The notes: generated by a model not told the origin, from the letters alone. A stretch of DNA of 64,000 bases from Phycisphaerae bacterium (GCA_035524355.1 DATKPA010000019.1:34117-98116); one strand, 5' to 3'. Shown: positions 12,904 through 24,702, counted from the first letter of the stretch. Program-made: numbers and translations.

Positions 12904-13283
12904 GAACGACGATGCTTTCCGCTGCGAGGCCCGCCGAGCGTCGATCTACACCTCCGCGCTTCGAACAAAGCGCAGACGGCGATGACACGGTCAGGGGGCG
13001 CCGGAGCTGTTGACGAAAGATGCTTCCGGGGAAAGAAGCAGAGCTTCCTATGGGATCAACACTTAGAATAATCGAGATCCTCCCGACCGTAAAGCCACCA
13101 CTTCCCCAGATTGACATCCCCGCCCGATAACCTGCTTCCCCCCAAGCGCCGACCTCTACTAACACAAGCGAATCCCATCCCCCATGCGACTCCCTGCTCA
13201 TTCTGAATTCGCTTATTCACTCATTCCGAATTCCACCCTCCCCCGTTATCCTACCCCACTCCCTTTTTACGGAGATTCTTTCC

Positions 13284-14600
13284 ATGCCCACACACTCCCC
13301 CTCCCCCCGCTCCGCCACCACCGGCATCGCCGTCATCGGCTGCGGCATCATCGGCTCCGCTGTCGCCGACGCACTCCTCAAGGAAACCAAACTCTTCCGC
13401 GAACGCTCCGGCATCACCCTCCAGCTCCGCCACATCGTCGAACGCGACATCCAACGCACCAAAAACGCCGGCATGCCCGCCAAACTCCTCACCGACAACT
13501 ACAACACCGCCCTCAATGACAAAAACACCCACATCGTCGTCGAACTCATCGGCGGCCTCGAACCCGCACGAACATTTGTCTTGAAGGCGCTCAAGGCCGG
13601 CAAACATGTCGTCACCGCCAACAAATACCTCCTCGCCGTCCACGGACACGAAATCCTCCACGCCGCCAAAAAGGCCAAACGCTGCGTCCAGTTCGAAGCC
13701 TCCTGCGGCGGCGCCATCCCCATCATCGCCGCACTCACCCAATCCCTCCTCGCCAACGACATCTCTCGCGTCGTCGGCATCGTCAACGGCACCTGCAACT
13801 ACATCCTCACCCAGATGACCCAGTCCGGCCAATCCTACGCCGACGCACTCGCCGGCGCACAAGCCGCAGGCTTCGCCGAACGCGACCCCACCTTCGACGT
13901 CAACGGCACCGACTCCGCCCACAAACTCGCCATCCTCTCCTCACTCGCCTTCGGCGCAGAAGTCCCCTTCGACAAAATCGAACGCACCGGCATCGACACT
14001 CTCTCCGATATCGACCTCAAATTCGCCAAAGAATTCGGCTACGTCTGCAAACTCCTCGCCATCGGCGAAAAGACAGATGGCGGCCTCTCCCTCCGCGTCC
14101 ACCCAACCTTCGTCTCCGCCGACCAGCTCCTCGCCAACGTCCACGGCTCCTTCAACGCCATCTCCGTCCACGGCCACGCCGCCGGCCAAACCCTCTACTA
14201 CGGCCGCGGCGCCGGCGGTAAACCCACCTCCTCCGCCGTCATCTCCGACATCCTCGACATCGCCCTCGGCACCGCCCCCCTCCTCTTCGAAAAACTCCCC
14301 CTCCTCACCAAAAAACGCACCCTCCCCTTCATCCCCAGCACCCAAATCATCTCCCGCAACTACCTCCGCGTCACCGCCCTCGACGTTCCCGGCGTCATGG
14401 CCCAAATCACCAACATCCTCTCCAAACACAAAATCTCCCTCGCCGGCCTCAACCAGCACGAATCCAAAGCCGGCCAACCCGTCCCCATCATCATCACTAC
14501 CCACGAAGCCAAAGACGGCGACATCCTCAAAGCCCTCGCCGAAATCGACCAGCTCAAACCCATCACCGCCAACACCATCCGCATCCGCGTTCTTGCGTAG
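13284..14600 (+). CDS. hom: Homoserine dehydrogenase with C-terminal ACT domain
   Basis: GCGIIG, VVTANK, FEASCGGAIPII, GIVNGTCNYIL, YYGRGAGG. Confidence 0.95.
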   Translation: MPTHSPSPRSATTGIAVIGCGIIGSAVADALLKETKLFRERSGITLQLRHIVERDIQRTKNAGMPAKLLTDNYNTALNDKNTHIVVELIGGLEPARTFVLKALKAGKHVVTANKYLLAVHGHEILHAAKKAKRCVQFEASCGGAIPIIAALTQSLLANDISRVVGIVNGTCNYILTQMTQSGQSYADALAGAQAAGFAERDPTFDVNGTDSAHKLAILSSLAFGAEVPFDKIERTGIDTLSDIDLKFAKEFGYVCKLLAIGEKTDGGLSLRVHPTFVSADQLLANVHGSFNAISVHGHAAGQTLYYGRGAGGKPTSSAVISDILDIALGTAPLLFEKLPLLTKKRTLPFIPSTQIISRNYLRVTALDVPGVMAQITNILSKHKISLAGLNQHESKAGQPVPIIITTHEAKDGDILKALAEIDQLKPITANTIRIRVLA

Positions 14601-14711
14601 GTCGAATGACTACTCAAAATTAGGTCAGCGCAAGCCTCACGTCCCGCCCGCCTGCGCTCTTAAAATACGCTCATGCCGTTCCTCTGTAATCACGAGCCGG
14701 GGAATTGAGCC

Positions 14712-15467
14712 ATGACACATTTTCGCACGCCCCTCACCGTCACCCTTTCCCTCTGCACCTTCGCCGCCGTCGCACACGCCCTCGTCCTCGGCCCCGGCGA
14801 CTACAACTTCGGCCCGCTCCCCGACGCCGATCCCACCTCCCTCCCCACCCTCGCCGGCTCCGTCGTCGCCTCTCAATCCCTTCCCTTCACCGTCACCCTC
14901 CAAACCACCCCCGTCGGATTCACCGGCACTCTCAACAACTGGATCACGCGCGAATCCTCCGGCACTCTCGACTTCTATTACCAGATCTCCATCGACACAA
15001 CCTCATCCTACTCCTATCCCATCACCCCGCCCTTCACCAAGCCCCTCGGCCTCGCCCCCATTTACTCCTCCGGCTTCGACCACTGCTTCACCGACTTCTA
15101 CCACCCCACCAATCCCGCAGACGTCACCCCCTCCTTCCCCTTCCGCTCCCCCGACGGCGATACCCTCCGCGTCGGCTACAGCGACGGCATCGTCAACTTC
15201 AATCTCGCCCCCGGCGACACCTCCTCCTTCCTCTTCCGCACCGACGCCACCGACTTCCAATACACCGGCACCACCGAACTTACCTTCCTGATCCCCCTCG
15301 ACAACCCCCTCGACCCCGGCGATCCCTTCGATTCCGCCGCAACCGACTCCATCCTCCTCCCCACCTTCGCCCCCGTCGGCCAAATCGCCCCCGAACCCGC
15401 CTCCCTCTTCTTGCTCCCACTCGCCCTCCTCCCCATCTCCCTCCTCCGCCGCCCATCACGCGCATAA
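14712..15467 (+). CDS. PEP-CTERM exported protein (cargo 1)
   Basis: Signal peptide and C-terminal APEPASLFLLPLALLPISLLRR. Confidence 0.85.
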   Translation: MTHFRTPLTVTLSLCTFAAVAHALVLGPGDYNFGPLPDADPTSLPTLAGSVVASQSLPFTVTLQTTPVGFTGTLNNWITRESSGTLDFYYQISIDTTSSYSYPITPPFTKPLGLAPIYSSGFDHCFTDFYHPTNPADVTPSFPFRSPDGDTLRVGYSDGIVNFNLAPGDTSSFLFRTDATDFQYTGTTELTFLIPLDNPLDPGDPFDSAATDSILLPTFAPVGQIAPEPASLFLLPLALLPISLLRRPSRA

Positions 15468-15573
15468 CCTGTCCTGCCCCGACCTCCCCGTTATAATGTG
15501 CCCCCCACGGTAAAGTTCGACTCTAACCCGCGCGTCGCTCCATCCACGCGCCTTGCTCAACGAGACCACAAAT

Positions 15574-15729
15574 ATGAAATACGTCATCATCATCCCCGAC
15601 GGCGCCGCCGATACCCCCATCCCCGACCTCCACCACAAAACCCCTCTCGACGTCGCCAATAACCCCAACATCGACTGGGTCGCCACCCACGGCAAGCCCG
15701 GCACCATCCGCATCCGCGTGCTGCAATAA
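15574..15729 (+). pseudogene. Chimeric fragment: apgM 5' end fused to a hom 3' end
   Basis: MKYVIIIPDGAADTPIPDLHHKTPLDVANNPNIDWVATHGKPG matches the 16399 start; the end TIRIRVLQ* shares CACCATCCGCATCCGCGT with hom 14573-14590. Confidence 0.9.
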
Positions 15730-15794
15730 CAGCAAGGTTTCTGATATAATTGCCGATGAAGTTAACGACGGATGTCATCGTGGAGTCCTAGAAA

Positions 15795-16004
15795 ATGAAG
15801 GCGGATTGGCTTACAAAGGTGGATCGGACCGCTGTAAGCGTCACCTCCCTTACTGAGTCGGACGAACGGGATTTCTGGTTGGCGCGAACAGTCGAAGAAC
15901 GCCTGATGGCTCTCGAAGCAATGCGGCGGACGCTCTATGGATACAACGACCCTCCACCCCGACTTCAAAGAGTTGTTGAAGTTGTTCAACGAGGAGAACG
16001 TTGA
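15795..16004 (+). CDS. Small protein paired with a nucleotidyltransferase (putative antitoxin-like)
   Basis: 69 aa with FWLARTVEERLMALEAMR; TATAAT near 15745; overlaps the next gene. Confidence 0.7.
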   Translation: MKADWLTKVDRTAVSVTSLTESDERDFWLARTVEERLMALEAMRRTLYGYNDPPPRLQRVVEVVQRGER

Positions 16005-16383
16005 GTACCTTCTCATCGGATCGTACGCCGTTGCCGTCTATGGATATCCCCGCGGCACTGTCGACATGGACCTCTGGATCGCCGTGAATCCCGCCAATGC
16101 CGACCGCGTGATGAGTGCACTCCGAAAATTCGGCTTCGGCAACGTAGTTGATCGCGAATGGCTCCTCGATCCTAAGAAAATCGTTCGGATGGGGGTCCCG
16201 CCGTACCGGATCGAGATCAGCACTGAAATCAGTGGCGTCAATTTCGACGAATGTTATCCTCGTCGCCTTGCCGCTGTGGTCGATGGAATTCCCACGCAAG
16301 TGATTAGTCTTCCTGACCTGAAGATAAACAAACGCGCCGCGGCGCGCGACAAAGATTTGAACGACCTCAAGAATCTTCCATAA
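15937..16383 (+). CDS. Nucleotidyltransferase-fold protein (DUF6036-like)
   Basis: YLLIGSYAVAVYGYPRGTVDMDLWI and NKRAAARDKDLND. Confidence 0.8.
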   Translation: MDTTTLHPDFKELLKLFNEENVEYLLIGSYAVAVYGYPRGTVDMDLWIAVNPANADRVMSALRKFGFGNVVDREWLLDPKKIVRMGVPPYRIEISTEISGVNFDECYPRRLAAVVDGIPTQVISLPDLKINKRAAARDKDLNDLKNLP

Positions 16384-16398
16384 CCCAAGTGAGTTGAA

Positions 16399-17613
16399 AT
16401 GAAATACGTCATCATCATCCCCGACGGCGCCGCCGATACCCCCATCCCCGACCTCCACAACAAAACCCCCCTCGACGTCGCCAATAAACCCAACATCGAC
16501 TGGGTCTCCAAAAACGGCAAGCTCGGCACCGTCCGCACCACGCCCCCCAACTATTCCGCCGGCTCCGACGTCTGCACCCTCTGCCTCCTCGGCTACGACC
16601 CCGCCAAATACCACCCCGGCCGCGCCCCACTCGAAGCCGCCGCCATGGGCCTCCAGCTCGACCCCGACCTCGACTGGGTCTTCCGCTGCAACCTCGTCAC
16701 CATCATCGACGGCACCATGATGGACCACTCCGCCGGCCACATCGGCGACAAGGAAGCCCGCATCCTCCTCGAAGAAGTCCGCAAGTCCCTCGCCCCAGAC
16801 TCCGGCACCACACCCCTCACCTTCTACCCCGGCGTCAGCTACCGCAACCTCATGACCTACAGGGGCGGCGACTTCACCGGCCTGAAAACCACCCCGCCCC
16901 ACGACATCCCCGAACAACCCATCAAATCCTACATGCCCAAAGGCAAAGGCGGCGACATCCTCAGCAGCCTCATCACCAAATCCCACGAAATCCTCAAAAA
17001 CCACGAGATCAACCTCACCCGCCGCGACCTCGGCGAAAACGAAGCCACCCACATCTGGCTCTGGGGCCAGGGCAAAGCCGCCAACGTCCCCTCCTTCCAG
17101 TCCCGCTTCAAAAAATCCGGCGCCATGATCACCGCCGTCGACCTCCTCCGCGGCATCGCCAACCTCCTCGGCTGGACCAACCTCGACTCCCCCGGCATCA
17201 CCTCCTACCACGACACCGACTACGCCGCCCAGGGCCAAACCACCATCAACGCCCTCGACCACTACGACATCGTCTGCTGCCACGTCGAAGCCCCCGACGA
17301 AGCCTCCCACGCCGCCAACTTCACCGAAAAAGTCGACTCCATCGAAGCCATCGACAAACACGTCGTCGGCCCCGTCCTCGAAAAACTCAAAACCTACCCC
17401 GAATGGCGCATGCTCATCATGCCCGACCACGCCACCCAGTGCATGACCCGCAAGCACTACGACGAACCCGTCCCCTTCGCCATCGCCGGCACCGGCATCC
17501 CCCCCAAACAAAACCTCCAACTCCCCTACACCGAATCCGCCGCCAAACAATCCGACCTCCACATCCAGCAAGGCTACGACCTCATGGAATACTTCCTCTA
17601 CGGCAACAAATAG
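16399..17613 (+). CDS. apgM: Cofactor-independent phosphoglycerate mutase family protein (ApgM-like; proposed homoserine kinase type)
   Basis: IIIPDGAAD, GSDV, HVEAPDEASH and PDH metal ligands; located near hom. Confidence 0.88.
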   Translation: MKYVIIIPDGAADTPIPDLHNKTPLDVANKPNIDWVSKNGKLGTVRTTPPNYSAGSDVCTLCLLGYDPAKYHPGRAPLEAAAMGLQLDPDLDWVFRCNLVTIIDGTMMDHSAGHIGDKEARILLEEVRKSLAPDSGTTPLTFYPGVSYRNLMTYRGGDFTGLKTTPPHDIPEQPIKSYMPKGKGGDILSSLITKSHEILKNHEINLTRRDLGENEATHIWLWGQGKAANVPSFQSRFKKSGAMITAVDLLRGIANLLGWTNLDSPGITSYHDTDYAAQGQTTINALDHYDIVCCHVEAPDEASHAANFTEKVDSIEAIDKHVVGPVLEKLKTYPEWRMLIMPDHATQCMTRKHYDEPVPFAIAGTGIPPKQNLQLPYTESAAKQSDLHIQQGYDLMEYFLYGNK

Positions 17614-17681
17614 GGAACCCGTAGCGTCAGCGCCGGTGAGCCAACCTCTCCCACCACCAGCCCTCTCCCCGCGCACGCGGC

Positions 17682-17743
17682 GCAAACGCTCTCCCCAAAA
17701 ACAAACCCCCGTCATTTAGCCCCGAGTGATGAACACGGGGGGC
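17682..17743. repeat. About 60-bp repeat with GC hairpin, copy 1 (copy 2 at 19990-20048)
   Basis: AAACCCCCGTCATTTAGCCCCGAGTGATGAACACGGGGGGC versus AAACCCGTCATTTAGCCCCCCGCGATGAACGCGGGGGGC. Confidence 0.8.
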
Positions 17744-17850
17744 TTTCGCGCGCGCACAGGCCCACACGCACTCCTCCCAACCCACGAAATAAATCCGATC
17801 GAATAAAACACCCGTCATCCGGCACTTCACTCCCAAAACCACAACTTCCC

Positions 17851-19137
17851 GTGCCCTCTAATCGCGAGACCCTCATGCCACAAGCCACGAAACTCGGCAT
17901 CCCACGCGCCATTCTCCTTGGCGCCGCTTCCGCAGTTGGCTCCTTCTCGATGCGCGCACACGCCACAACCATCTGGTCCGCCGGACCCACCGACCTCAAC
18001 TTCTCCCTCGCCACCGGCGCCGACGTCACCCTCCCGCAAAATCAGGACCGCATCACCCCCACCGTCTGGGTCACCCGCAACTCTTTTCACGGCATATTCA
18101 ATGCCTACTCGGAGACCTTTTTCGGCAGCTCCAGCCCCGCCGACACGGAATGGGCCTTCTCCGGCCTCGGCGGAAATCCCACTTTCGCCTACGGAGCCGG
18201 CGCCGCCCTCTTTCCCACTCTCTCCTTCACCCCCTGGGGAACTTCCTTGGGCTCCACCGGTGGCCTTCAATTCAACATCACCTCCCATCCCGGCGTCGTC
18301 CATCTCATCACCAATGACACCTACATCGACATCAACTTCACCGCCTGGGGTTCTCACGGCGACAGCAGCTTCGCCTACACCCGCGCCACCGGTCTCATCT
18401 CCGCACTCTGGAACGGCTCCGCCGGCAACTGGTCCAACTCCACCAACTGGTCCACCAATCCCGCCTTCCCCAACAACTCCGCCAACTTCCACTTTGCCGC
18501 CGCCATCAACGCCGGTTCCGCTCTTCTCGACGTCATGGCCACCGTCAGTTCCCTCACTCTCGCCGGCTCTGCCAACGCCTGGACCTCCAACCTCGACCTC
18601 GCCAGCAACTCCCTCATCGTCCAGCCCGATCCCGCCGCAAAAGCCACCGCCTTCGCCACCTTGAACAACCAAATCGCCTTCGGCCAATCCCACTTCGCCG
18701 GAGGGGGAGCGGCAGGGGCTTCGGGGGCGGCGGCCGGCATCACCGATTCCACACTCCCCGCCAACTTCGGCATCGCTCTCCTCGACAACGCCCTCACCCA
18801 CTTCACCACCTTCCGCGGACAACCCGCGGACGCCAACTCACTCCTCCTCTCCCCTGAACTCCTCGGCGACGCCAACGCCGACGGACACGTCGACCTCACC
18901 GACCTCTCCACCGTCCTCAACAACTTCGGAACCGCCACCCCCAACTGGACCGACGGCAACTTCGACAACGCCCCCACCATCGACCTCACCGACCTCTCCG
19001 CCGTCCTGAACAACTTCGGCCAATCCAACCCCAACGCCAACACCGCCGGATTGGCCACCGCCACGCCCGCGCCCGAACCCGCCTCCCTTACAATCCTGCT
19101 TCTCGCCGGGCAAATCCTGCAACGCCGCCGCAAGTAA
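17851..19137 (+). CDS. PEP-CTERM protein with dockerin-like repeats (cargo 3)
   Basis: Signal peptide, QDRITPTVWVTR domain, GDANADGHVDLTDLSTVLNNFG and GNFDNAPTIDLTDLSAVLNNFG, APEPASLTILLL...RRRK; start may be 17875. Confidence 0.88.
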   Translation: MPSNRETLMPQATKLGIPRAILLGAASAVGSFSMRAHATTIWSAGPTDLNFSLATGADVTLPQNQDRITPTVWVTRNSFHGIFNAYSETFFGSSSPADTEWAFSGLGGNPTFAYGAGAALFPTLSFTPWGTSLGSTGGLQFNITSHPGVVHLITNDTYIDINFTAWGSHGDSSFAYTRATGLISALWNGSAGNWSNSTNWSTNPAFPNNSANFHFAAAINAGSALLDVMATVSSLTLAGSANAWTSNLDLASNSLIVQPDPAAKATAFATLNNQIAFGQSHFAGGGAAGASGAAAGITDSTLPANFGIALLDNALTHFTTFRGQPADANSLLLSPELLGDANADGHVDLTDLSTVLNNFGTATPNWTDGNFDNAPTIDLTDLSAVLNNFGQSNPNANTAGLATATPAPEPASLTILLLAGQILQRRRK

Positions 19138-19182
19138 CGCGGGCATCCTGCCCGCCTATGCCCCGCAGGGCATTCGATCGCC

Positions 19183-19298
19183 ACCCCGCCAAACAAAACA
19201 TCCAACTCCCCTACACCGAATCCGCCGCCAAACAAGGCGACCTCCACATCCAGCAAGGCTACGACCTCATGGAGTATTTCCTGTACGGCAACAAGTAA
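19183..19298 (+). pseudogene. Displaced copy of the apgM 3' end (copy 2)
   Basis: PAKQNIQLPYTESAAKQGDLHIQQGYDLMEYFLYGNK* versus apgM PPKQNLQLPYTESAAKQSDLHIQQGYDLMEYFLYGNK*. Confidence 0.93.
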
Positions 19299-19491
19299 CG
19301 CGGGCATCCTGCCCGCAATTCATGGGAAAAGCCGACGGATTCGATCCGTCGGTCCCCTCTGCGCACACACCCCTCTCGCCCCCCCACGCAACCGCTCCAA
19401 TTCCATCGCCACTTTTCCTTTGCCTCCAACGCCTCACCCCGCTAAATTCACCCCACACACGCCTCGACCCTCATTCAACAAGGAGCCACCC

Positions 19492-19944
19492 ATGTCCTCC
19501 CCCCTCCGCAAAACCTGGCAGGACTGCAAAAAACAAATGGGCCCCAACTCCGACAAACAATTCAAAGAAGACCTCGGCCCAACCCTCGACAAAGCCCAGG
19601 ACGCCTTCGACGCCGTCGTCGCCGAAAACAAAAGGAAGATCAAGGTCGAAGGATATTCCGATTCCACCGCCGACCTCGCCAAACTACGCTCCAAGACCGC
19701 CACCGCCCTCCCCCTCCACGAAAAAGTCCACAAGGTCGCCACCACCTACAAAAGCACCGTCGACAAAATGGACAAAAAAGCCCCCGGCGTCGCCAACGCC
19801 CTCAAGTGCCTGAACGACATCCTCACCCATTTCCAAAACCAGGAAAACCTGCTGGTCCAGCACTGCCCCAGCGAAAAAGACGCCGAACGCTTCAAACAAG
19901 CCTACGCCACCGCCACCCTCAAAAAAATGAACCCCGGAATCTAA
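19492..19944 (+). CDS. Hypothetical Lys-rich helical protein (cargo 4)
   Basis: AGGAG RBS before ATG 19492; 150 aa containing FKEDLGPTLDK. Confidence 0.75.
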   Translation: MSSPLRKTWQDCKKQMGPNSDKQFKEDLGPTLDKAQDAFDAVVAENKRKIKVEGYSDSTADLAKLRSKTATALPLHEKVHKVATTYKSTVDKMDKKAPGVANALKCLNDILTHFQNQENLLVQHCPSEKDAERFKQAYATATLKKMNPGI

Positions 19945-20167
19945 TCGCCGCCCCCGTTCCCCACCGACAATCCCCCCACCGCCCCGCCCCAAACGCCCCC
20001 TCCCCAATCAAACCCGTCATTTAGCCCCCCGCGATGAACGCGGGGGGCCACCGGCACCCACCCAACCAGACACAACGCCCCGACTACTCGACATCCCCCC
20101 GCCCCACCAACATTCACCCGCGGCCCTCGAAACCGCGCCCGCAACTCCAACCCACCGCCACACCTAC

Positions 20168-20266
20168 CAAAACCTCCAACTCCGCTGCACCGAACCCGCC
20201 GCCAAAAACCGACCTCCATATCCAACAAGGCAACCCCGACCGCGCTTGGAACTACGTCCTCCACCG
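20168..20266 (+). pseudogene. Degenerate copy of the apgM 3' end (copy 3)
   Basis: CAAAACCTCCAACTCCGCTGCACCGAACCCGCCGCCAAAAACCGACCTCCATATCCAACAAGGC...TGGAACTACGTCCTCCAC aligns to 17509-17605 with indels. Confidence 0.82.
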
Positions 20267-20459
20267 CGCTGTCCGTCCGGCATTTCAATACGACGGCTGG
20301 CCGTTCTCCGTGTTGTCGCCCTGGACGAGACAAATCATTGCTTGCCACTCCAGTTCGAATGCCTTTAGGGCAGTGCGAAGGCCATGAAGGGAATCTTTCG
20401 CAGCGTAGTGCCGACGAGCTAAACCCACCGCATGACACGAAAGGTCCATCGATCCTTTA

Positions 20460-20491
20460 TGACATTCACTTGCATTTACAGTTTGATTGCA
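20460..20491. promoter_or_regulatory. Putative tandem metalloregulator (Zur-like) boxes
   Basis: TGACA-TTCAC-TTGCA and TACAG-TTTGA-TTGCA, 17 bp apart, upstream of the COG0523 gene. Confidence 0.5.
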
Positions 20492-20568
20492 TACAATGGA
20501 TCAAGTTCTGAAAGCGATGTGGGATGTTCGCAATTGCCGCCCGACGGCGGCATGTATGGAGTGGAAAA

Positions 20569-21783
20569 ATGCAAAGTCGTCTTCCGGTCACGGTGCTCAG
20601 CGGATTTCTCGGGGCTGGAAAGACGACGCTGCTGAATCACGTGCTGTCCAGCCGCGGAAAGCTGCGCGCGGCGGTGATTGTCAACGACATGAGCGAAATC
20701 AACATTGACGCCCGTCTCGTGGAAGGGGGCGGAGCGGCGCTGCGGCGGGCCGACGAGAAGCTCGTCGAGATGACCAACGGATGCATTTGCTGCACCCTGC
20801 GCGACGATTTGTTGAAGGAGGTCGCAGCATTGGCGCGTGAGGGGCGGTTTGATTATCTCCTGATCGAAGGCACAGGCATCGCCGAGCCGCTGCCGGTTGC
20901 CATGACCTTTTCGTTTAAGGATGAACAGGGGATTGGCCTGTCGGATCTGACTCGTCTTGACACGATGGTGACGGTGGTTGACGCCCAGAATTTCCCCCGT
21001 GACCTGGGATCGCCCGATAATCTTTCCGACCGGCGGCTCGGCACAGATGTCAACGATACGCGGACTATCGCAGATCTATTGATCGATCAGGTGGAGTTTG
21101 CCGACGTGATCGTCGTGAACAAGGCGGATCTTGTTTCGCCTGAGGAACTGGACCAGATTTCCGCGGTGATGCGGAAGCTGAACCCGGGGGCGAAGGTGAT
21201 TCCGTCGGTGCGGGGGAATATTGACCTGTCTGAGATACTCAATACCAGCCGGTTCGACATGGAGAAGGCCAGTCAGTCTGCCGGATGGATTCGGGAACTG
21301 AACAACAAGCACACGCCTGAGACAGAAGAGTATGGCATTGGCAGTTTTGTGTTCCGGGCGTTGCGGCCGTTTCATCCACTGCGGCTGCACGCCTTCATTG
21401 AGCAGGGGCTGCCGGGTGTTGTGCGGTCAAAGGGATTCATCTGGATCGCATCGCGGAATGATTTTGTGGGGGTCTGGGGCCACGCAGGTGCATCGCTGAC
21501 GATCGATCCCGGCGGTAAGTGGTGGGCAAGCTCGCACCGCAGCGAATGGCCGGAGGACCCCGCAACGCGATCCTATGTTGAGTCGATCTGGCGCGAGCCG
21601 TGGGGGGACCGTCGGCAGGAGCTGGTGGTCATCGGTGCAAACATGAACAAAGAGTCGCTGCAGTCGCGGCTGGAAGCCTGTCTGTTGAATGACAAGGAAA
21701 TGGCTGAAGGCCCGCAGGCATGGGCTCGCTACGAGGATCCGTTTCCAGCCTGGCAGATATTCGAGTCGATCAGTGCGGCCTGA
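20569..21783 (+). CDS. COG0523 (CobW/ZigA-like) zinc metallochaperone GTPase
   Basis: LSGFLGAGKTT, GCICC, IEGTG, NKAD, CobW_C (VVRSKGFIW, GDRRQELVVIG). Confidence 0.93.
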   Translation: MQSRLPVTVLSGFLGAGKTTLLNHVLSSRGKLRAAVIVNDMSEINIDARLVEGGGAALRRADEKLVEMTNGCICCTLRDDLLKEVAALAREGRFDYLLIEGTGIAEPLPVAMTFSFKDEQGIGLSDLTRLDTMVTVVDAQNFPRDLGSPDNLSDRRLGTDVNDTRTIADLLIDQVEFADVIVVNKADLVSPEELDQISAVMRKLNPGAKVIPSVRGNIDLSEILNTSRFDMEKASQSAGWIRELNNKHTPETEEYGIGSFVFRALRPFHPLRLHAFIEQGLPGVVRSKGFIWIASRNDFVGVWGHAGASLTIDPGGKWWASSHRSEWPEDPATRSYVESIWREPWGDRRQELVVIGANMNKESLQSRLEACLLNDKEMAEGPQAWARYEDPFPAWQIFESISAA

Positions 21784-21836
21784 ATTCGCCAGGCGTCATT
21801 GAATCTCTTTTCCGCTTTTCTTTCCGGAGCTTTCCC

Positions 21837-22472
21837 ATGGGTACAGATGTGTTTGTCGGCAACATTGACCGTAACGTGAGCGCAGCAGATCTCGAAGGGC
21901 TCTTTGCTCAGTATCAGACGGTGCAGCGCGTAAACGTTGTGACCGACAGGATGACGGGCCAGTCAAAGGGGTTCGGGTTTGTGACGTTTGGAGATGCCGG
22001 CGAAGCGGCGAGCGCCATTGCGCAACTCAACGGTTTTCAGCTGGGCGGGCAGCCGCTGAGCGTGTCGCCGGCGCGACCGAAGGATGCCTCGCCTCGTGGC
22101 CGCGACAGCCGCCCGCAGACTTATGGCGGCTCGGCGGATACGAAGGAGATTTACGTGAAGGGCCTCGGCGACTGCACCAGCGAAGAGCTGCACAACCTCT
22201 TTGCCGAGCACGGTACGGTGGTGAAGGCGAAAGTGATCATTGACCGCGACACCAATCGCTCGAAGGGCTTCGGCTACGTGCAGATGGGTTCGGATGAGGA
22301 ACTTCGGCAGGCCATCGCGGCACTCGACGGGGCCGACTTTAACGGGTCACGCCTTTCGGTATCCGAAGCGCGTCCGAGGGGTAGCGAAGGGCCCCGCCGT
22401 GGCGCTGGAGGTGGCGGAGGCTACGGGAGTTTTGGAAGGCGGCAGCAGGGTGGCGGCGGACAGCGCTATTGA
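21837..22472 (+). CDS. Tandem two-RRM RNA-binding protein with Gly-rich tail
   Basis: VFVGNI/KGFGFVTF and IYVKGL/KGFGYVQM RNP2/RNP1 pairs; GGGGGYG tail. Confidence 0.9.
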   Translation: MGTDVFVGNIDRNVSAADLEGLFAQYQTVQRVNVVTDRMTGQSKGFGFVTFGDAGEAASAIAQLNGFQLGGQPLSVSPARPKDASPRGRDSRPQTYGGSADTKEIYVKGLGDCTSEELHNLFAEHGTVVKAKVIIDRDTNRSKGFGYVQMGSDEELRQAIAALDGADFNGSRLSVSEARPRGSEGPRRGAGGGGGYGSFGRRQQGGGGQRY

Positions 22473-22481
22473 TTCCGCTGA

Positions 22482-23390
22482 TTCAAGCCACGTGGCAGCG
22501 ATGTCGCAACACTCCGCACGGAGCATCCCAGCGGCCCGCAATATGCCGACTATTTGGCGGCCGGTGCGAAGAATGCAAAACTTCCTGTTCGGACCGGCAT
22601 CGACGTGCACAGCGTAACGCCCGATGAGGAAGGCTTTCGCCTGGAAACCTCGGAGGGGCCGATCTTGTCAAAAATGGTCGTCTGGGCGGCGGGAGAATTT
22701 CAATATCCGCGGCTGAACCCGTTTCCGGGGGCCGAACATTGCCTGCACAACAGCCGCGTGGCTGCATGGTCGCAGTGTGCCGGCGATGAGGCATGCGTGA
22801 TTGGTGGCTACGAAAGCGGACTCGATGCCGCCATCTCGCTGGTCCTCACCGGCAAGAAGGTGACCGTCCTGGATCAGCACGCGCCATGGCAGCCGGAGCA
22901 GGAATACGATCCCAGCCGCATTCCTTCCCCCTACACCCTGCAGCGACTTCGCGGCGCAATGGCCACCGGCAGGTTGCAACTCACCCACAATTCGCGAGTC
23001 GTCGCGGTTCGCAGGGATGGCGACGCCTACGTATGCGACCTCGCCGAGGGGCCTCCCATCAGGACCCGGCAGCAACCGATCCTGGCGACGGGATTTGTCG
23101 GCAGCCTGAGCCTGATCCGACCGCTCTTTGAATTTGATGATGATCACGCCGTGCGTCTCACGCCGAACGACGAGTCAACACGCGTGCCCGGCGTCTTTCT
23201 GGTAGGCCCTGCGGTCCGACAGAAAAAGGTCATTTTCTGCTTCATCTATAAATTCCGCCAGCGTTTCGCCATCGTTGCCCAGGAAATCGCCAGACGGCTC
23301 GGTGTTGCAACGCCTCCCATGGATGAATACCGCAAACATAACTTTTATCTCGATGATCTGACGTGCTGTGAACAGGCGTGCACCTGCTGA
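22482..23390 (+). pseudogene. 5'-truncated NAD(P)/FAD-dependent oxidoreductase (family linked to COG0523)
   Basis: Frame opens after a TGA at 22479 with TLRTEHPSGPQYADYL, then WAAGEFQYP, IGGYESG, ATGF, FCFIYKFRQRF, DDLTCCEQACTC; N-terminal GxGxxG FAD motif absent. Confidence 0.75.
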
Positions 23391-24026
23391 CATATTTGTT
23401 TGCCGTATCGGAAGTGTGCATGGCGAAGCTATTTCAGACAGTGTCGCCAAATACGACAAGCGACCACGAGCGACGATGTTCCTGATACGCGTGCTCTTAA
23501 GGTTTCGGTCACCGTAGCGCCGATTTTGAACGTTTCCCCGGCGGATGCCACCGCTGTCCGGAACCTGCCGTGAATCGCCTTCAGCCGTCGGAAGGGGCAC
23601 CCGCAAACTGGCTCAGAATCCGGGAAAATCTGTGTAATCTGGGGACAAAAAATTTGGGGCGGAAACAGTTACGAAGGTACTTGCGTTACCCCAAAAGTTA
23701 GGTTAAAATTCGGTACCAAAAAATCGGGAGGAGGGAACCCCATGCCATCACACCTCACTACGCGCCCACCCGCCTCGTTTCGCGTCTCATCTTCCGCGTT
23801 TCGGGTTTCCCCACCCACCCTGCACCCCATTGCACCCTCCCCCACTCCAAACACGCAACCCGTTGCCCGTTACACCCTCCCACACGCGCAACCCGCTGCC
23901 GCCCACTACCCTCCCACCCTCATTTCCCGCGCAAAATCCCACAACCTGCAACCCATTGCACCCCTCAAACCCAACCACCCCCAAAGGGGCCACACCCGGC
24001 CCCTCACACCACCGCCCTCTCAATTC

Positions 24027-24108
24027 CATGAGTACCTTGGGACAATCATGAGTATCTTGGGCACAAAACCCCAATTCCTTTCCCACACCATGAGTACCTT
24101 GGGCACAA
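24027..24108. repeat. Three copies of CATGAGTAYCTTGG(G)CACAA
   Basis: Copies at 24027, 24047 and 24089 in a non-coding C-rich stretch. Confidence 0.75.
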
Positions 24109-24213
24109 ACCCGCGAAACTTTTCCCAACTCCTCCACCAGCCCCCGAGACAGACCCACCCGAAACCCGATACCCTACCCCCGAAACCCGAGCCCTCCGCC
24201 CGCGCAGGGATCC

Positions 24214-24651
24214 TCACCACCCCCCCACCCCAATCACCCCCCGATGCCACCGAATCTCCGCGGGCCGCCTCTCCCCCGCCGGCCACACCACCGCCACCAC
24301 ATCAATCCGCGGCCGCAGCCCCTTCTTCCAATGCCGCCGCATCAACCCCCGCACCGTCCCCACCAGCTTCTTTCGTTTCCGATACCGAATCGAATCCTCC
24401 GGCCGCATATACCCCTCCGACCGCCGCGTCCGCACCTCCACAAACACCAGGAACTCCCCCTCGATCCCGATCAGGTCGATTTCCCCTTTCCCATGCACCC
24501 GATTCCGCGCCACAATCTTCACTCCCTGCTTCCGCAAGAACTTCGCCGCCGCAATTTCCCCCCGATCCCCCAACGGCATCCGCCGGAGGCCGACGCGCTG
24601 CGCAAGCCATCCCACCCACGACACCTTCTTCCGTCCCGGAGCCGTTCGCAT
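24214..24651 (-). CDS. YraN family endonuclease-like protein
   Basis: LGDRGEIAA, GEIDLI, LVFVEVRTR, RIDVVAV; start may be 24579. Confidence 0.88.
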   Translation of the reverse strand: MRTAPGRKKVSWVGWLAQRVGLRRMPLGDRGEIAAAKFLRKQGVKIVARNRVHGKGEIDLIGIEGEFLVFVEVRTRRSEGYMRPEDSIRYRKRKKLVGTVRGLMRRHWKKGLRPRIDVVAVVWPAGERRPAEIRWHRGVIGVGGW

Positions 24652-24702
24652 GCGAAAAAGCTTACCGCGACTGCCATCGACTCAAAAGGAAAAAACCGTT
24701 GG

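Follow-up and report, generated by a model that had tools for sequence, protein, structure and literature searches.

Foreign DNA can be trapped beside a conserved sequence through one homologous arm and an illegitimate joint at a microhomology, a process named homology-facilitated illegitimate recombination (HFIR), the original reports of which are said to be those of de Vries and Wackernagel in 2002, Prudhomme et al. in 2002 and Meier and Wackernagel in 2003. Here we describe candidate natural footprints of this kind in a 64,000-nt stretch of DNA (hereafter the window, G000:C19:34117-98116) from a Phycisphaerae bacterium. The genome, G000, is a draft metagenome-assembled genome (MAG) of 128 contigs, 84.9% complete and with 3.2% contamination, and the public runs that hold the DNA of the window are labelled wetland metagenomes. 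From the homoserine dehydrogenase gene hom, through apgM, to yraN, the window carries a stack of cargo genes separated by displaced ends of hom and apgM. We propose, with a probability of about 65%, that this stack consists of recombination scars at a hotspot, left by homologous recombination on a gene end combined with an illegitimate joint, and that it is neither a mobile element nor an integron.

HFIR generally produces an insertion together with a deletion of similar size, with 3-10 bp of microhomology at the joint (PMC3240628), and both HFIR and single-crossover trapping appear mainly as laboratory selections, natural footprints being mostly argued for polymorphic-toxin loci (PMC5361080, PMC3240628). 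The locus is like HFIR in that one homologous arm is combined with an illegitimate microhomology joint, no element enzyme is involved and foreign DNA comes to lie beside conserved sequence; as for the homologous arm, every insert abuts a conserved, duplicated gene end. It is unlike HFIR in that, at 12 loci, the end of the resident gene survives in duplicate instead of being lost in a deletion, and whereas the HFIR reports concern laboratory events, the footprint here is natural and repeated. A related precedent is the E. coli assay of Amarir-Bouhram et al. (2011), in which 56 of 60 clones had a duplication of 109-950 bp of the homologous segment; these duplications resulted from a single crossover of a recircularised molecule, with a plasmid-borne construct after conjugation (PMC3240628). 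Such a Campbell-type event likewise flanks the insert with a direct duplication (81-261 nt in our case) and its closure, too, is made at an illegitimate joint, but the sole hint of a circle at our locus is a contig of the public run X3 that joins position 16398 to position 15574.

The effector-immunity arrays of Vibrio cholerae's type VI secretion system (T6SS) offer another parallel. HFIR has been proposed for them and a comparison with integrons drawn (Kirchberger et al. 2017, PMC5361080), in a paper that also cites the displacement of rhs C-termini (Jackson et al. 2009) and orphan CdiA/Rhs tips (Poole et al. 2011). There as here, a conserved upstream sequence anchors the incoming module, and older pieces are displaced in the downstream direction to form an array. 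However, what T6SS arrays displace are tips of toxins, along with immunity genes, from one and the same system, which selection for immunity retains, whereas at our locus housekeeping genes serve as anchors, the displaced gene ends are dead and the cargo is unrelated (toxin or toxin-antitoxin (TA)-like genes, surface proteins, a methylase); unlike rhs, cdi and T6SS tips, the displaced tips are a metabolic enzyme's conserved ends and no variable toxin domains with cognate immunity. The locus also resembles an integron in its small co-oriented cassettes by a fixed point, the newer ones plausibly nearer to it, but it has no IntI, attI, attC or shared border sequence. Saunders and Snyder reportedly described, in 2002, an exchange by homologous recombination in both flanks that replaces the cargo and leaves no duplicated gene ends. 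Their minimal mobile elements of Neisseria (Saunders and Snyder 2002, as cited and used in PMC1797815) share with our case the small alternative gene sets between the same conserved genes, the lack of mobility genes and the restriction-modification genes in the cargo. What distinguishes the present case from those described is its housekeeping anchors, dead allelic ends, TA cargo and about a dozen loci in a single genome. Our literature searches turned up no description of this signature for housekeeping genes with TA cargo, which is not proof of absence, and nothing relevant on TA modules with duplicated gene ends.

Gene calls from open reading frames (ORFs) and from Pfam and NCBIfam profile searches, together with self-comparison, give the following order (window coordinates):

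13284-14600, plus strand: hom (homoserine dehydrogenase), intact (Pfam Homoserine_dh 208 bits, NAD_binding_3, ACT).
14712-15467, plus strand: cargo block 1, a 251-aa secreted-type protein with, by eye, a PEP...basic C-terminus, without Pfam or NCBIfam match.
15574-15729, plus strand: chimera ORF of 51 aa, the start of apgM fused to the end of hom (genome self-comparison).
15795-16383, plus strand: cargo block 2, a 69-aa ORF that overlaps the gene of a DUF6036 nucleotidyltransferase (29.1 bits against a Pfam cut-off of 23.6).
16399-17613, plus strand: live apgM-family gene, intact, 404 aa (TIGR02535, PRK04200); its 3' segment A is 17496-17613.
17612-17711, unstranded: dispersed repeat R1, beginning at the apgM stop codon, on the border of A and cargo (~25 blastn hits on other contigs).
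17851-19137, plus strand: cargo block 3, a 428-aa secreted-type protein, without hidden Markov model (HMM) match.
19134-19180, unstranded: REP-like double hairpin (GTAAC plus palindrome), which supplies the TAA stop of cargo block 3; the joint of cargo and B is at ~19181.
19181-19297, plus strand: apgM 3' copy B, 93% identical to A, with a REP hairpin after it at 19295-19316 (self-comparison).
19489-19944, plus strand: cargo block 4, an orphan gene of ~151 aa, without HMM match.
20155-20267, plus strand: apgM 3' copy C, decayed, ~80% with indels (self-comparison).
20524-23390, plus strand: cargo block 5, a cobW-family GTPase, a two-RRM protein and an N-terminally truncated Pyr_redox_3 flavoprotein (Pfam).
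24214-24651, minus strand: yraN (UPF0102), the conserved right flank (Pfam UPF0102 73 bits).

This order, with its displaced pieces, agrees with that given in an earlier note written from the sequence of the window. The apgM5'::hom3' chimera announced there is present, with a hom piece of only ~27 nt. The labels PEP-CTERM, dockerin and TA found no HMM support and go by eye or by architecture, although DUF6036 is matched, and the 'zinc island' of the note comes down to one cobW-family GTPase. Cargo block 2 is accordingly called TA-like by its architecture only. The apgM product scores 483 bits against TIGR02535 ('proposed homoserine kinase', cut-off 446.3) and 485 bits against PRK04200, and full-length matches are present in relatives. 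Since it passes the TIGR02535 cut-off, hom and apgM most likely form a threonine-pathway pair, and because apgM also directly follows hom in the relatives G007, G021 and G010, its product is probably a threonine-pathway kinase rather than a glycolytic mutase.

The displaced pieces stand out when G000 is compared with itself. The start of apgM (16399-16537) recurs at 15574-15712 (139 nt, 93.5%, E 3e-53), its end (17499-17612) at 19184-19297 (114 nt, 93%, E 2e-41) and again, at 17509-17604, in the decayed piece 20168-20267 (~80%, E 3e-15). Three 3' tips of a single gene, A, B and C, therefore line up at and downstream of the live gene. The homology of A and B runs from a run of seven C (17496-17499) through the stop codon; copy C begins in the same register as B, at most ~10 nt apart, and a test for apgM homology upstream of copy C found none (p 0.36). 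The hairpin region before B (19143-19172) resembles a stretch of apgM, 17414-17443, that precedes the duplicated segment by 53 nt; 23 of 30 positions are identical (p 0.002 by simple shuffles).

One joint can be read against a reference. The chimera follows apgM to nt 129, continues with CACCATCCGCA at 15702-15712 and finishes as hom, its ORF tail being the last 27 nt of that gene (14574-14600, repeated at 15703-15729). The 11-nt motif of the joint, CACC(A/G)TCCGCA, also occurs in hom at 14573, and in the relative G041 the 11-mer (10 of 11 identical) is found both in hom (-27) and in apgM (+129), as two direct copies that lie 827 nt from each other. The sequence of this joint reads as a microhomology joint of 4-11 nt, in agreement with the microhomology supposed in the earlier note; it is the sole joint that could be read, donor sequence being lacking for the others. 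The hom remnant in the chimera carries a hom allele of the G041 type, unlike the live hom of G000. The joint fits a linear fragment with an illegitimate junction at one end and a homologous one at the other, it fits the mirror image of that event, and it also fits a G041-type fragment that closed on itself at the two 11-mers and then integrated through the 129 nt of apgM.

The hom/apgM loci of ten relatives were compared by tblastn and at the nucleotide level. Between hom and apgM, the genes are adjacent in G007, G021 and G010, ~100 nt apart in G042 and 390 nt apart in G001, which belongs to the same genus; the 69-aa ORF and the nucleotidyltransferase lie there in G041 and G004, the nucleotidyltransferase in G017 and a fragment of it in G012. 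Between apgM and yraN, the gap is 45 nt in G004, 2.7 kb in G001 and 4.5 kb in G010, and G017 and G042 have only the orphan gene. The ten relatives thus show at least four states in each interval, with small alternative gene sets, and cargo sets do differ at the same locus, as the earlier note had anticipated. Some of these arrangements likely represent the states before insertion, namely those of G041, G042 and G017. G041 has the order hom-TA-apgM and is colinear with window 15702-17609 (86% at the nucleotide level) from hom -27 into apgM, its homologues of the TA-like pair being 93% and 89% identical in amino acids. G042 and G017 have the order apgM-hairpin-orphan-yraN and are colinear with 19197-19941 and 23770-24666; in G042, homology resumes at 23770 and continues into yraN. 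The orphan gene lies directly 3' of apgM in both (68-70% identity in amino acids, tblastn).

Relative to these reference states, G000 has three extra segments: 14574-15702 (a hom end, then the PEP-CTERM-like gene, then the first 129 nt of apgM), 17496-19180 (end A, R1, the dockerin-like gene and the REP-like hairpin pair) and 19945-23769 (copy C and the cobW block). The 5' extra may alternatively be read as a unit of 825 nt, made of the hom end, the TA-like pair and the apgM start. Cargo block 1 is absent from this locus in all ten relatives (tblastn), and cargo block 3 and the cobW block are absent from the ten loci examined. Extra pieces of apgM occur in G000 only, among 45 genomes including G000, 42 of which have a match; in G054 and G043, where matches are partial, the gene seems to have been cut by the ends of contigs. 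Self-comparison of the ten relatives' hom/apgM loci, ~190 kb in all, revealed no duplicated gene ends, and G015 has two intergenic repeats downstream of apgM; ~190 kb is too little for the habit to be called special to G000.

The apgM end of G001 gives another view of the same arm. Its identity to the window falls from 95-98% to ~70% near position 17468, its third positions are G-rich beyond that point and it groups with the end of G004 at 100/100, with no remnant beside it. A foreign 3' end with a breakpoint indicates that apgM ends serve as recombination arms, and this one represents plain homologous replacement on the same arm.

The scars are not confined to this locus. A self-comparison of G000, limited to local pairs with a length of 70-600 nt, an identity of 84% or more and a spacing of 50 nt to 12 kb, returned 32 direct pairs and 2 inverted ones, 23 of the direct pairs existing solely as those two copies. 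According to an automatic rule, nine direct pairs end no more than 15 nt from a native gene's stop codon and have their second copy downstream, four lie at gene starts (one of them a 60-copy repeat, leaving three credible cases) and 19 are unclassified. Native-gene ends make up 12 of the 32, each locus being a different gene end, so the displaced termini that the earlier note suggested looking for genome-wide do exist. Besides the focal locus, repeat loci lie on contigs C107, C117, C120, C42, C6, C68, C40, C63, C48, C15 and C21, with inserts of 0.6-3 kb. At all nine 3' pairs, homology stops right after the stop codon, the two copies often having different stop codons, and the copies of a pair differ at sites scattered along their length. 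Frameshifts or lost stops mark the remnants at C40, C63 and C117, as well as copy C.

Ten insert ORFs were scanned. A ParE toxin, a Gp49/HigB-like toxin with an HTH partner, a PIN domain and a DNA methylase scored above cut-off, MqsA, PARP and PEP-CTERM matches fell below it and two ORFs had no match. By reading the listed ORFs, cargo is co-oriented with the host gene at seven of the eight 3' loci that could be assessed, and at the focal locus all eight cargo ORFs are on the hom/apgM strand. The same scars at about a dozen unrelated genes point to a genome-wide habit and not to a special locus; nothing points to a dedicated system.

The displaced ends have the look of alleles and not of newly made copies, because live and remnant copies differ mainly at third codon positions: over the nine 3' pairs, positions 1, 2 and 3 account for 20, 27 and 66 differences (chi-square 32.6, 2 d.f.), and in the six ungapped pairs 47 of the differing codons are synonymous and 21 non-synonymous. 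Third positions being 68% C, mutational bias was checked by base. Differences at positions 1, 2 and 3 affect 5%, 1% and 23% of A, 3%, 6% and 8% of C, 4%, 16% and 31% of G and 8%, 6% and 47% of T, and the third-position excess thus persists in every base class. At the sites where live and remnant copies differ (five loci), G001 agrees with the live copy 47 times, with the remnant 25 times and with neither 4 times, meaning that each copy carries changes of its own. At the C120 locus, identity to G001 is 97.6% for the live end, 89.8% for the remnant and 88% for the gene body; the tract of near identity, ~340 nt, exceeds the 167-nt duplicate and has the appearance of an end imported on a linear fragment, higher conservation of that tract being an alternative.

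The gene ends, 80-260 nt long, could instead have been copied in place when the cargo entered, through slippage, a long staggered cut or tandem duplication, the outer copy decaying afterwards. Such decay would accord with remnants that are usually the more diverged copy relative to G001 (the 47 and 25 sites above, and a ratio of 14:1 at C120) and with their frameshifts and lost stops. However, the hom remnant in the chimera carries the allele of G041 and not the resident one, the third-position excess holds within each base class, at 25 of 76 sites the live copy is the one that stands apart from G001 and the remnant alike, and none of the 32 direct pairs exceeds 97% identity, though assembly may hide identical pairs. 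We therefore regard copying in place as a very unlikely origin of the remnants.

Specific integration would be another way to stack segments behind one gene. Integrative elements, or integrase-less derivatives mobilised in trans (similar to cis-mobilizable elements, CIME-like), might target the apgM 3' end and accumulate in tandem, each bringing a replacement gene end in its attP, with the integrases later lost or encoded elsewhere. The common register of B and C, within ~10 nt, and the repeats that run exactly through the stop codon at nine of nine 3' loci are what such elements would leave, and 13 tyrosine recombinase matches in the genome exceed the cut-off. Yet none of the 15 PF00589 matches of the genome is on C19 (133 kb), where no IntI adjoins the array, and the nearest recombinase match to any other repeat locus is ~26 kb off (C48). 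In addition, at least 12 loci involve 12 different gene ends, and the 26 cargo-border units have no sequence in common, hence neither attC-like sites nor a single att core; inserts of 0.6-2.4 kb hold only TA or single genes; the 5' joint is an apgM::hom microhomology fusion and not an att site; and the 64-kb window has no tRNA gene. The earlier note was thus right in seeing neither an integrase nor a tRNA att site, and accretion at att sites has, in our view, little chance of being the explanation. Searches for Rfam matches at 11-27 kb and for Pfam matches in the ORFs of the free intervals were likewise negative.

Dispersed repeats lie at several borders. A REP-like family, GTAACGCGGGCATCCTGCCCGC, with ~23 loci in G000, includes the hairpins at 19134-19180 and 19295-19316; its unit is GTAAC followed by a palindrome with 7-nt arms and often by a second hairpin. 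The TAA of the unit serves as stop codon for copy B, for the dockerin-like gene and for the apgM of G042, which is followed by the same element. An exact 25-nt repeat (19131-19155 and 19292-19316) was considered as a target duplication and rejected, being two copies of this genome-wide family. The 3' part of R1 (17683-17743) recurs after the orphan gene at 19990-20048 as a terminator-like hairpin. Two more dispersed families, at 23680-24100 and 13199-13250, have hits on more than 10 contigs each, and the former takes up most of the space ahead of yraN, where it gives rise to a spurious C-rich ORF of 327 aa.

The C-terminal half of cargo block 3 belongs to a multi-copy family with, by eye, two dockerin-like repeats and a PEP-CTERM-like tail, copies of which are present on many contigs of G000 and in Phycisphaerae MAGs. 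The cobW block is compositionally foreign, with a GC skew of +0.05 to +0.18 between flanks at -0.3 to -0.6. The flavoprotein ORF in it (22554-23390) matches only positions 91-305 of the Pyr_redox_3 profile, its N-terminus missing; a copy 73% identical lies on contig C33, and the truncated gene is probably a fragment from another rearrangement. Native genes here have a strong excess of C at third codon positions (C3 0.7-0.8), which explains the GC skew of -0.3 to -0.6 on plus-strand genes and also long spurious antisense ORFs. Those opposite the C-rich genes, all on the minus strand (15850-17715, 17827-18822 and 18375-19307; 621, 331 and 310 aa), are codon-bias artefacts that could mislead gene callers. 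Beyond yraN lies mgtE, also on the minus strand.

A stack of alternative gene ends in a MAG might also result from an assembler that strung together co-occurring strains with different cargo. The 128 contigs and 3.2% contamination of G000 leave room for this, as do related sequences, 90-95% identical, in the same runs. But the junctions between cargo and remnants share no long word with the live gene and so require real reads, and the shared word at the chimera joint, only 11 nt, is too short to mislead an assembler. Moreover, Logan contigs, made with a different assembler from the public runs X1, X2 and X3, reproduce the junctions that could be checked. X1 gives exact contigs for 17559-18885 (depth 15), 18992-19230 (22) and 19244-20600 (14.4, part of a 13.2-kb contig), which at even depth span the passages from A through R1 to cargo, from cargo to B and from B through the orphan gene to C. 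X3 gives exact contigs over the apgM::hom joint (15574-15953) and from A to R1 (17553-17749), and X2 exact pieces of four cargo genes and of B with the orphan gene. Holes in the X1 cover at 14.9-15.3 kb and 15.7-16.3 kb are meaningless because X1 holds 0.97 of the sampled words. An assembly chimera is accordingly the least credible of the explanations considered here. The X3 contig mentioned above (511 nt, depth 3.2) runs along 16268-16398 and then 15574-15953, going back 825 nt, with 60 nt that fit both sides; this junction could be that expected of a circular or tandem TA unit, or a graph path through the 60-nt shared stretch.

We thus return to recombination scars as the favoured origin of the stack. 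DNA from related Phycisphaerae lineages would have entered at least 3-4 times, each incoming molecule being paired by RecA-type homologous recombination with a conserved gene end (apgM, hom and possibly yraN), while the other side would be sealed illegitimately, at a short microhomology. Two routes can be envisaged: (i), a linear fragment would perform both steps at once, as in HFIR, with the joint inside the resident gene end; (ii), a fragment would first close on itself at a microhomology, and the resulting small circle, made of ~110-260 nt of gene end plus cargo, would integrate by a single crossover. Either way, the gene would be left whole, with cargo adjoining it and a second, allelic gene end on the far side, and repetition at apgM would produce the order A-cargo-B-cargo-C. 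As duplications were obtained in E. coli and duplications are found here, we rate the two-step route no lower than the one-step route; the C120 tract leans toward a linear fragment and away from the two-step route. Short diverged repeats may have survived while long identical ones deleted themselves. On the 5' side, the incomer could be either the TA unit or the PEP-CTERM-like unit, and copy C with the cobW block may be the oldest layer, or else a fragment that has its anchor in yraN. RecA dependence, the way in which DNA entered and the order and direction of events are thus our inferences from the arrangement of the locus.

The anchor-directed capture put forward in the earlier note appears broadly right as a mechanism, given the allelic ends, the microhomology joint and the breakpoint in G001, with the reservation that HFIR generally joins insertion to deletion. 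Its integron-like, age-ordered array holds in part and is overstated: the direction of several events can be read either way, and two of the blocks also occur in sister genera. Indeed, the TA-like pair and the orphan gene cannot simply be newer cargo, being in the same positions in G041, G004, G017 and G042, and copy C loses its standing as the oldest displaced end if the cobW block is the passenger end of a fragment anchored in yraN.

Several observations weigh against the proposal of recombination scars. A simple single crossover predicts hybrids of two blocks, but no single switch point between donor and resident sequence was seen in six repeat pairs, the patterns being patchy. The tree of apgM ends, a comparison suggested by the earlier note, supports G001 with G004 and leaves A, B and C without supported groupings. 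The starts of B and C, at most ~10 nt apart, and the narrow range of duplicate lengths, 81-195 nt for the gene ends, are not predicted by random joints, and, as HFIR generally entails a deletion, the one-step route needs an unusual position of the joint. A donor arrangement, either hom-PEP1-apgM (PEP1 being cargo block 1) or apgM-R1-dockerin gene, was not found in relatives or in metagenome and genome contigs. The one ComEC homologue of G000 is not diagnostic of competence because ComEC was found in 10 of 14 control genomes. Finally, the genome is that of an uncultured organism, an 85%-complete MAG for which X1 probably served as source sample and is hence not independent, and X2-X4 may come from one campaign. 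To these points some answers may be offered: the seven-C run may act as a hotspot for joints and so give B and C their register, and the narrow lengths and missing pairs above 97% may reflect the loss of long or identical repeats, the limits of assembly and the detection floor of 70 nt. Related searches gave the following: among metagenome contigs, cargo block 1 has only relatives that are 31-37% identical, at five loci; among genome contigs, the dockerin-like protein matches 17 loci through its C-terminal family domain only (residues ~225-428), all in Phycisphaerae or Phycisphaerales MAGs; sliding identity along hom reveals no clear imported tract; and Ku was not found in G000 (85% complete).

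It is tempting to speculate further that the cargo moves as recombinase-free cassettes, in which small modules, chiefly TA pairs, would move about in circular form together with 100-200 nt of a conserved host gene end, integrate after its stop codon by a single crossover and leave again through the repeats. We hold this to be improbable, if still deserving of thought. Were it true, cargo may be read through from the host gene, addiction would guard it against loss, stacking at one gene would give rise to integron-like arrays and an answer would be at hand to the question of how solitary chromosomal TA modules move.

On the favoured reading, that of recombination scars, G000 provides about a dozen clean footprints, including a triple stack in a threonine-synthesis gene pair, and with them a searchable signature: a displaced allelic gene terminus beside a small insert, direct pairs far outnumbering inverted ones. 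We know of no genetic data for Planctomycetota, where this signature could be applied. It could serve to gauge how much accessory DNA, solitary toxin-antitoxin modules especially, enters genomes without the enzymes of mobile elements.

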